30,913 nt of DNA. It comes from Escherichia coli (GTDB taxonomy: Bacteria; Pseudomonadota; Gammaproteobacteria; Enterobacterales; Enterobacteriaceae). Within the stretch, counting starts at the first letter, position 1, and every line of letters begins with the position of its first letter. The notes under the pieces were generated by a model. The model ran no database searches. It worked only from the letters and a program-made list of their open reading frames with translations, and was not told the origin of the DNA. A program made the translations under genes and the position numbers. The stretch lies in assembly GCF_003334355.1 (NCBI RefSeq), contig NZ_QOWP01000039.1. One strand, given 5' to 3'. Below are positions 20,535 to 20,597 of the stretch, piece by piece.

Positions 20535-20544
20535 ATAAAAATGC

Positions 20545-20585
20545 AAAAAGGAGCAGCAAGATGGCTCAACTTGCTACTCCTTTTT
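20545..20585 (-). terminator. Hairpin terminator after hdeB (A-run/T-run flanked, potentially bidirectional)
   Basis: aaaaa + aggagcagcaag ... cttgctactcct + ttttt; it lies 13 nt past the hdeB stop and 11 nt before the yhiD start. Confidence 0.5.
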
Positions 20586-20597
20586 ACTTGTACCTCA

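Follow-up and report, generated by a model that had tools for sequence, protein, structure and literature searches.

The hairpin in the hdeB–yhiD spacer of the window (the whole stretch of DNA analysed, 30,913 nt) is very probably a constitutive Rho-independent (intrinsic) terminator of the hdeAB mRNA that leaks read-through into yhiD. In the mechanism we propose, RNA polymerase from the hdeA promoter would transcribe hdeA and hdeB, and the 11-bp stem together with the U5 tract would release most transcripts 7–8 nt past the stem, that is 8–9 nt ahead of the yhiD ATG. About one in ten transcripts, as estimated from small long-read counts, would read through. Most or all yhiD mRNA would come from these read-through transcripts, and yhiD would consequently follow the regulation of hdeAB at a much lower level.

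Locus and hairpin architecture

The window represents the E. coli acid fitness island. A 1.5-kb piece around the hairpin matched 5420 of 5426 complete E. coli genomes with 98–99.9% identity, and the matching region is annotated in E. coli genomes as yhiD, hdeB and hdeA. Window positions are converted to MG1655 (NC_000913.3) coordinates by an offset of +3,635,368. In an alignment of 141 nt spanning the spacer, window and MG1655 differ at a single base, located between the hdeB stop codon and the hairpin. Since the segment from the hairpin through the U-tract to the yhiD start is identical to MG1655, the published K-12 data apply to the window. The genes and the transcription start are arranged as follows:

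21423, minus strand: hdeA transcription start (MG1655 3656791), where the hdeAB primary transcript of 882 nt begins (SMRT-Cappable-seq row 3655910-3656791, b3510+b3509)
21040..21372, minus strand: hdeA coding sequence (open reading frame list and RefSeq), the first gene on the mRNA whose 3' end lies at the hairpin
20598..20924, minus strand: hdeB coding sequence (open reading frame list and RefSeq annotation of the MG1655 locus), stop codon TAA at 20600..20598
19887..20534, minus strand: yhiD coding sequence, a protein of the MgtC/SapB family with 215 aa, ATG at 20534..20532

The ATG at 20534 is the correct yhiD start, because the Pfam MgtC domain covers residues 9–136 of YhiD (E = 7e-39), RefSeq uses the same start and the codon is kept in all Escherichia loci examined. 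Two other start codons were considered and rejected. An upstream in-frame TTG at 20546 lies inside the U-tract, has no Shine-Dalgarno (SD) sequence and is not the RefSeq start, and initiation at the Met21 codon would truncate the MgtC domain.

The spacer between hdeB and yhiD comprises 63 bp (20535..20597). Read as RNA from the minus strand and flanked by the hdeB stop and the yhiD start, its sequence is UAA UGAGGUACAAGU AAAAA GGAGUAGCAAG UUGAGCCAU CUUGCUGCUCC UUUUU GCAUUUUUAU AUG, with the following elements:

20581..20585, minus strand: A5 run on the 5' side of the hairpin (sequence and minimum free energy (MFE) structure); in RNA that reads through it is base-paired to the U5 run, hence the two-sided look
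20570..20580, minus strand: 5' arm of the stem, GGAGUAGCAAG, invariant among the Escherichia lineages examined except for wobble-compatible changes (E. albertii, one O157 strain)
20561..20569, minus strand: 9-nt loop, UUGAGCCAU, which differs between lineages
20550..20560, minus strand: 3' arm of the stem, CUUGCUGCUCC (sequence and fold)
20545..20549, minus strand: U5 tract of the terminator (sequence)
20542..20543, minus strand: mapped RNA 3' ends (MG1655 3655910 and 3655911; Term-seq, PMC7815308, supplementary file 1; SMRT-Cappable-seq, PMC6131387)
20535..20541, minus strand: UUUUUAU, the remainder of the U-rich, SD-less yhiD leader (sequence; anti-SD duplex +2.2 kcal/mol)

The first-pass annotation had described this spacer as an A-run/stem/T-run hairpin, which agrees with the coordinates and the sequence. 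Its statement that the spacer is almost entirely hairpin was too generous, however: the structure occupies 41 of the 63 nt (20545..20585), or 45 when two additional closing pairs are counted, roughly two thirds of its length. Likewise, the yhiD ATG is indeed closely spaced to the U-tract, but at 10 nt past the U5 run rather than about 11 nt; it lies 15 nt past the last stem pair.

The stem consists of 11 bp (six G-C, four A-U and one G-U), and a U-rich tract, UUUUUGCAUUUUU, comes directly after its last pair. When polymerase reads through, the stem in the RNA grows to 18 bp, by pairing of the A5 with the U5 run and by two more pairs. The MFE of the 91-nt context is −31.3 kcal/mol (z = −4.66), and none of 200 shuffled sequences folds as well. 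The hairpin alone amounts to −23.2 kcal/mol with the A/U runs and to −17.8 kcal/mol for the core. A search of the 30.9-kb window found five terminator-like hairpins against 0.1 expected from dinucleotide shuffles, and the hdeB–yhiD hairpin has the longest stem among them. Another match of this search (22625..22645) is located near an arrS 3' end recorded by Term-seq. A promoter/terminator scan with a loop limit of 8 nt missed the hdeB–yhiD hairpin because its loop has 9 nt. In Rfam no family came to or near its gathering score for the hairpin region; sub-threshold matches to Plastid-psbA-2 and mir-761 (23–24 bits against gathering scores of 56–82) were rejected as chance matches.

Stem length, G-C content, U5 tract, the position of the 3' ends 7–8 nt past the stem and the distance of the hairpin from the preceding stop codon (12–19 nt, varying by lineage) all resemble canonical Rho-independent terminators at E. 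coli operon ends. Unlike at such sites, a gene on the same strand, which databases place in the same transcription unit, begins only 15 nt past the stem.

Conservation and the opposite strand

A 121-nt region including the hairpin is present at ≥ 95% identity, that is at least 95%, in 5418 of 5426 complete E. coli genomes. For a wider comparison one genome was taken per species with HdeB, which gave ten loci. Five Escherichia lineages, including E. whittamii, share the 63-nt spacer and identical stem arms, with variation in flank and loop. A sixth locus with the same arms (L005) lies on an 8.6-kb contig labelled Flavobacterium paronense CECT 8460 (NZ_JAUFQN010000010.1). This contig carries an E. 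coli-type hdeA-hdeB-yhiD arrangement with frameshifts and an HdeB that is 96% identical, and almost certainly stems from E. coli DNA that contaminated a long-read assembly.

In an alignment of 13 sequences 99.4% of the cells are paired, and 13 of 18 pairs never vary. Four pairs vary on one side (C-G/U-G, A-U/G-U, U-G/C-G and G-C/G-U) and all of them remain paired. The changes are wobble-compatible. Since no double compensatory change occurs, covariation and shuffle statistics are uninformative. The wobble changes preserve pairing only on the strand that is sense for hdeAB. A further one is found in the O157:H7 strain Gim1-1, where the 5' arm reads GGAGUGGCAAG and an A-U pair becomes G-U (L018 ~4180, corresponding to window position 20575); a different O157:H7 genome shows no difference from the window in the hairpin region.

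E. albertii has hdeA, hdeB and a homologous hairpin and lacks yhiD; some 10 nt past the U-tract comes the end of a convergent gene for a heme ABC ATPase (hmuV/chuV-like). Three more distant loci, from 'Enterobacteriaceae bacterium 89', Citrobacter sp. JGM124 and Moellerella, show hdeB followed by an unrelated strong hairpin and no yhiD. Two of these hairpins (L009 and L011) have T-rich tails, and the Citrobacter hairpin (L010) is without a T-run. The retention of the hairpin in E. albertii without yhiD, together with the hairpins that follow hdeB in the distant loci, indicates that the hairpin belongs to hdeAB and that hdeB is generally the last gene of its transcript.

Further observations concern the downstream side of the locus. 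In E. albertii NBRC 107761 (L008 2825..2890) the convergent heme ABC ATPase gene is the immediate neighbor of the hdeB hairpin. In O157:H7 (L018 3425..3520) the chu genes adjoin yhiD, and a second terminator, GCAGGAGUACC...GGUACUCCUG-UUGCUUUUAA, is situated between yhiD and hmuV. The 3' shoulders of this terminator and of the hdeB hairpin are alike (CUCCU.UUG..UUU). Comparison of these sequences suggests that E. albertii may have lost yhiD when a deletion at a short shared sequence removed the DNA between the two terminators. In E. coli BHD6 (NZ_CP141791.1; L017 435..1500, corresponding to window 20535..20543) an IS903B element, accompanied by a 9-bp target duplication, ATAAAAATG, has inserted past the U-tract and ahead of the yhiD ATG, which makes this a natural allele separating yhiD from hdeAB read-through.

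The near-symmetry of the element raises the question of an additional role that would not exclude the first: as a bidirectional terminator it could also stop antisense transcription from the dctR side (hmuV in chu+ strains) before it reaches hdeB. The A5 run mirrors the U5 run, so that the plus strand presents the hairpin followed by TTTTTACTTGT and either strand carries a U-tract; the E. albertii hairpin sits between the convergent hdeB and hmuV genes, and the 41-nt dctR–yhiD spacer has no terminator-like hairpin of its own. On the plus strand, however, the G-U pair becomes an A-C mismatch, the fold is weaker, at −18.7 compared with −23.2 kcal/mol (for slightly different spans), and the strict scan makes no plus-strand call. 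Moreover, Term-seq in three conditions recorded no plus-strand 3' end at 36559xx, only minus-strand ends. We therefore consider such a second function conceivable but unlikely. Bidirectional intrinsic terminators between convergent genes were reportedly described by Ju et al. in 2019 using SEnd-seq. The hdeB–yhiD hairpin shares with them the A-tract/stem/U-tract symmetry and, in E. albertii, the convergent setting, and differs from them by the same-strand yhiD downstream in E. coli, the mismatch in the plus-strand stem and the lack of a mapped plus-strand 3' end.

Two observations were made on the plus strand and on the dctR side. In the region 20547..20617 (plus strand) an 18-codon open reading frame with its ATG at 20561, antisense to the 3' end of hdeB, has an ideal AAGGAG motif 7 nt upstream of its start and was nevertheless rejected as a gene. 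It is probably spurious, since it has only two codons in locus L002, its SD sequence is part of the stem with the ATG in the loop, and the site has no recorded transcript end on the plus strand. Only 41 nt (window 19846..19886) lie between dctR and yhiD, which are convergent. At this junction Term-seq lists no 3' end on either strand (MG1655 3655100-3655699), and an antisense overlap of the slp-dctR and yhiD transcripts is possible.

Transcript ends, read-through and yhiD mRNA

Term-seq of MG1655 (Adams 2021, PMC7815308) places RNA 3' ends at 3655910 (LB, OD 2.0; 61,204 average reads) and at 3655911 (M63; 193,294 reads), both among the stronger peaks listed, and gives no 3' end for the hdeAB terminator in LB at OD 0.4. 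In the window these ends correspond to 20542 and 20543, the A and C of UUUUUGCA, 7–8 nt past the stem and 8–9 nt ahead of the yhiD ATG. The missing end at OD 0.4 presumably reflects the expression of hdeAB, which we take to be an operon induced in stationary phase and by acid.

SMRT-Cappable-seq (Yan 2018, PMC6131387, Supplementary Data 1; M9 medium) reports a primary transcript that starts at 3656791, ends at 3655910 and contains b3510 and b3509 only. For this transcript 28 reads were counted at the start, 14 stop at 3655910 and two go past it with a median read-through of 34.5 nt (PMC6131387). Hence, two independent methods agree to the base on where the hdeAB mRNA ends. The counts correspond to a termination efficiency of roughly 85–90%, a very small sample of 16 informative reads from M9 medium only. 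The step across the hairpin, 14 reads ending against two passing, differs from equal coverage and, with the Term-seq ends, supports the first-pass view of the hairpin as an attenuation point between hdeAB and yhiD. That view had also allowed for a promoter inside hdeB as the source of yhiD mRNA. Such a promoter offers no escape, since any transcript from it must still cross the terminator; to avoid it, transcription would have to begin in the last ~15 nt, where the scan detected nothing resembling a promoter. The site is labelled 'novelTTS' in the 2018 dataset (PMC6131387) and 'orphan' in the 2021 dataset (PMC7815308), and the literature searched contained no explicit discussion of an hdeAB terminator. 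Its 3' end is thus already mapped in two public datasets, and the element is of a textbook kind.

A stronger Term-seq 3' end is present further upstream, in the hdeA–hdeB spacer (20925..21039, minus strand), at window positions 20949..20950 (MG1655 3656317/8; 176,188 and 406,178 reads). It is located 25 nt ahead of the hdeB ATG and 8 nt past a long imperfect hairpin, UGAACAGGCCGGAAUA...UAUUCCUCCUGUUCA, without a U-tract. An additional Term-seq end at 3656455 falls within hdeA. The hdeA transcript may step down twice, in the order hdeA > hdeB > yhiD.

Term-seq records steady-state ends and by itself cannot separate termination from trimming back to a stable hairpin. The hdeB–yhiD hairpin could accordingly act mainly as a 3' stabiliser that blocks exonucleases, with polymerase usually continuing into yhiD (or being stopped there by Rho) and the observed ends arising by 3'-to-5' trimming. 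The strong end behind the U-tract-less hairpin ahead of hdeB implies that end-protecting hairpins do occur in the hdeAB transcript. At the hdeB–yhiD hairpin, however, a canonical U5 tract directly follows the stem and the ends lie 7–8 nt past it, as at intrinsic terminators. Reads selected for capped 5' ends seldom pass the site (2/16), and those that do extend by a median of only 34.5 nt. No Rho termination region is listed nearby, where the bicyclomycin experiment refers to LB at OD 0.4, a condition in which hdeAB is silent. Trimming as the main origin of these ends is, in our judgement, very unlikely.

The level of yhiD mRNA parallels that of hdeAB. Under microaerobiosis, RNA-seq gave log2 fold-changes of 5.42 for hdeA, 5.84 for hdeB and 5.21 for yhiD. 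A further RNA-seq study, covering three conditions, gave fold-increases of 6.24/28.09/2.66 for hdeA, 6.10/29.08/2.68 for hdeB and 6.67/19.57/2.16 for yhiD. Other genes of the island followed differing patterns in that study (slp 14.78/9.52/1.78, dctR 6.78/6.29/2.36, hdeD 3.04/14.86/2.98). Thus yhiD is co-regulated with hdeA and hdeB in both studies, in terms of fold-changes rather than absolute RNA ratios, and it tracks them as a fixed read-through fraction predicts. An exception is acid shock: in the wild type after 10 min at pH 2 the hdeA and hdeB mRNAs doubled and yhiD mRNA did not follow. This departs from the proportionality of pure read-through, although the difference is a small one, seen at pH 2. 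On the protein level, YhiD was undetected in a proteome that contained HdeA and HdeB. In the accessible portion of a report on a YdeO-overexpression array, hdeA and hdeB are among the induced genes and yhiD appears only within the operon name. The transcription start tables of Kim 2012 contain no entry for hdeA, hdeB or yhiD.

In another reading the element is a regulated attenuator, and read-through is switched by a condition or factor, for example by an sRNA with Hfq at the U-tract, by Csp-type antitermination or by H-NS/StpA-dependent elongation. In the delta-hns and delta-stpA strains yhiD did rise about 1.5-fold on acid shock, which it did not in the wild type. Folding, however, reveals no antiterminator: the stem keeps a probability of at least 0.97 with 60, 120, 200 or 330 nt of upstream RNA, and the lack of a competing fold speaks against a switch and for partial termination of a constitutive kind. 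The 12–19 nt that separate the hdeB stop from the hairpin are not conserved, no Rfam family reaches threshold, and the fold-changes of yhiD equal those of hdeAB over a more than 30-fold induction, which implies a roughly constant read-through fraction. A regulated attenuator is likewise very unlikely. As in leader attenuators and riboswitch platforms, a terminator hairpin stands immediately ahead of a coding sequence, but there is no antiterminator, leader peptide, conserved aptamer or Rfam match, and the hdeAB hairpin stands behind a coding gene and persists in a lineage that lacks the downstream gene.

The least probable reading is that yhiD is independent, with its own start within or just past the hairpin, a leaderless or near-leaderless mRNA and a terminator that insulates it fully from hdeAB; its ATG is indeed without a SD sequence, as in leaderless mRNAs, and GadE/GadX-type regulation could give similar fold-changes without co-transcription, but the promoter scan found no sigma-70-like −35/−10 pair on the minus strand between 20534 and 20924 (hdeB and spacer), the yhiD pattern is closer to hdeAB than to other GadE/GadX targets of the island, and the SMRT-Cappable-seq supplement (PMC6131387) has no row naming b3508 (yhiD).

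The yhiD start and the relation of yhiD to hdeAB

The earlier observation that yhiD has no recognizable SD sequence holds: the best anti-SD duplex between −25 and −1 is calculated at +2.2 kcal/mol, compared with −6.0 for hdeA, −3.1 for hdeB and −8.2 kcal/mol for hdeD. Opening the yhiD start region is calculated to cost 12.2 kcal/mol from −15 to +15 and 23.1 kcal/mol from −20 to +15, while the stretch from −8 to +15 is nearly free (2.4 kcal/mol). The corresponding costs for the two longer spans are 5.6/5.9 kcal/mol for hdeB and 7.6/7.6 kcal/mol for hdeA. The folding model thus predicts that the hairpin penalizes ribosome access to yhiD, which by calculation supports the first-pass suggestion that it could occlude initiation. 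With an 18-bp hairpin ending 8 nt ahead of an SD-less ATG, translation of yhiD is probably weak as well.

A U-rich leader can act as an S1-binding site at SD-less starts, and the 15-nt, U-rich yhiD leader is a candidate for such a site. Taken further, the terminator could double as an initiation determinant of yhiD: its U-rich tail would be the sole landing site for the ribosome (S1), the 18-bp hairpin reaching to −9 would limit 30S access, and one 45-nt element would set the YhiD:HdeAB ratio in transcription and in translation, possibly with condition-dependent read-through (acid, H-NS/StpA). We offer this extension tentatively and consider it rather doubtful.

Internal partial intrinsic terminators are known from T1 between rpsU and dnaG in the rpsU-dnaG-rpoD operon and from the rplL-rpoB attenuator. 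As in these systems, the upstream genes are highly expressed, a stem-loop with a U-tract follows, and the downstream gene would receive a fixed small fraction of the transcripts; like dnaG, yhiD has a weak ribosome-binding site. In contrast to both, the hdeAB RNA is released unusually near the next start, 8–9 nt ahead of the yhiD ATG, and this is the sole uncommon trait of the element. Furthermore, a designed operon and a mere leak into a neighbor are both possible for hdeAB-yhiD, because the terminator of E. albertii exists without yhiD.

Databases treat hdeAB-yhiD as a single transcription unit, whereas the mapped hdeAB transcript has 882 nt and stops 8 nt short of yhiD. YhiD is probably made at a small fraction of the level of the chaperones. 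Strong polarity should therefore be expected whenever the amount of YhiD is deduced from operon membership or when fusions and deletions are built at this junction. Otherwise, the hdeAB terminator is one more case of well-understood expression tuning within a gene cluster.
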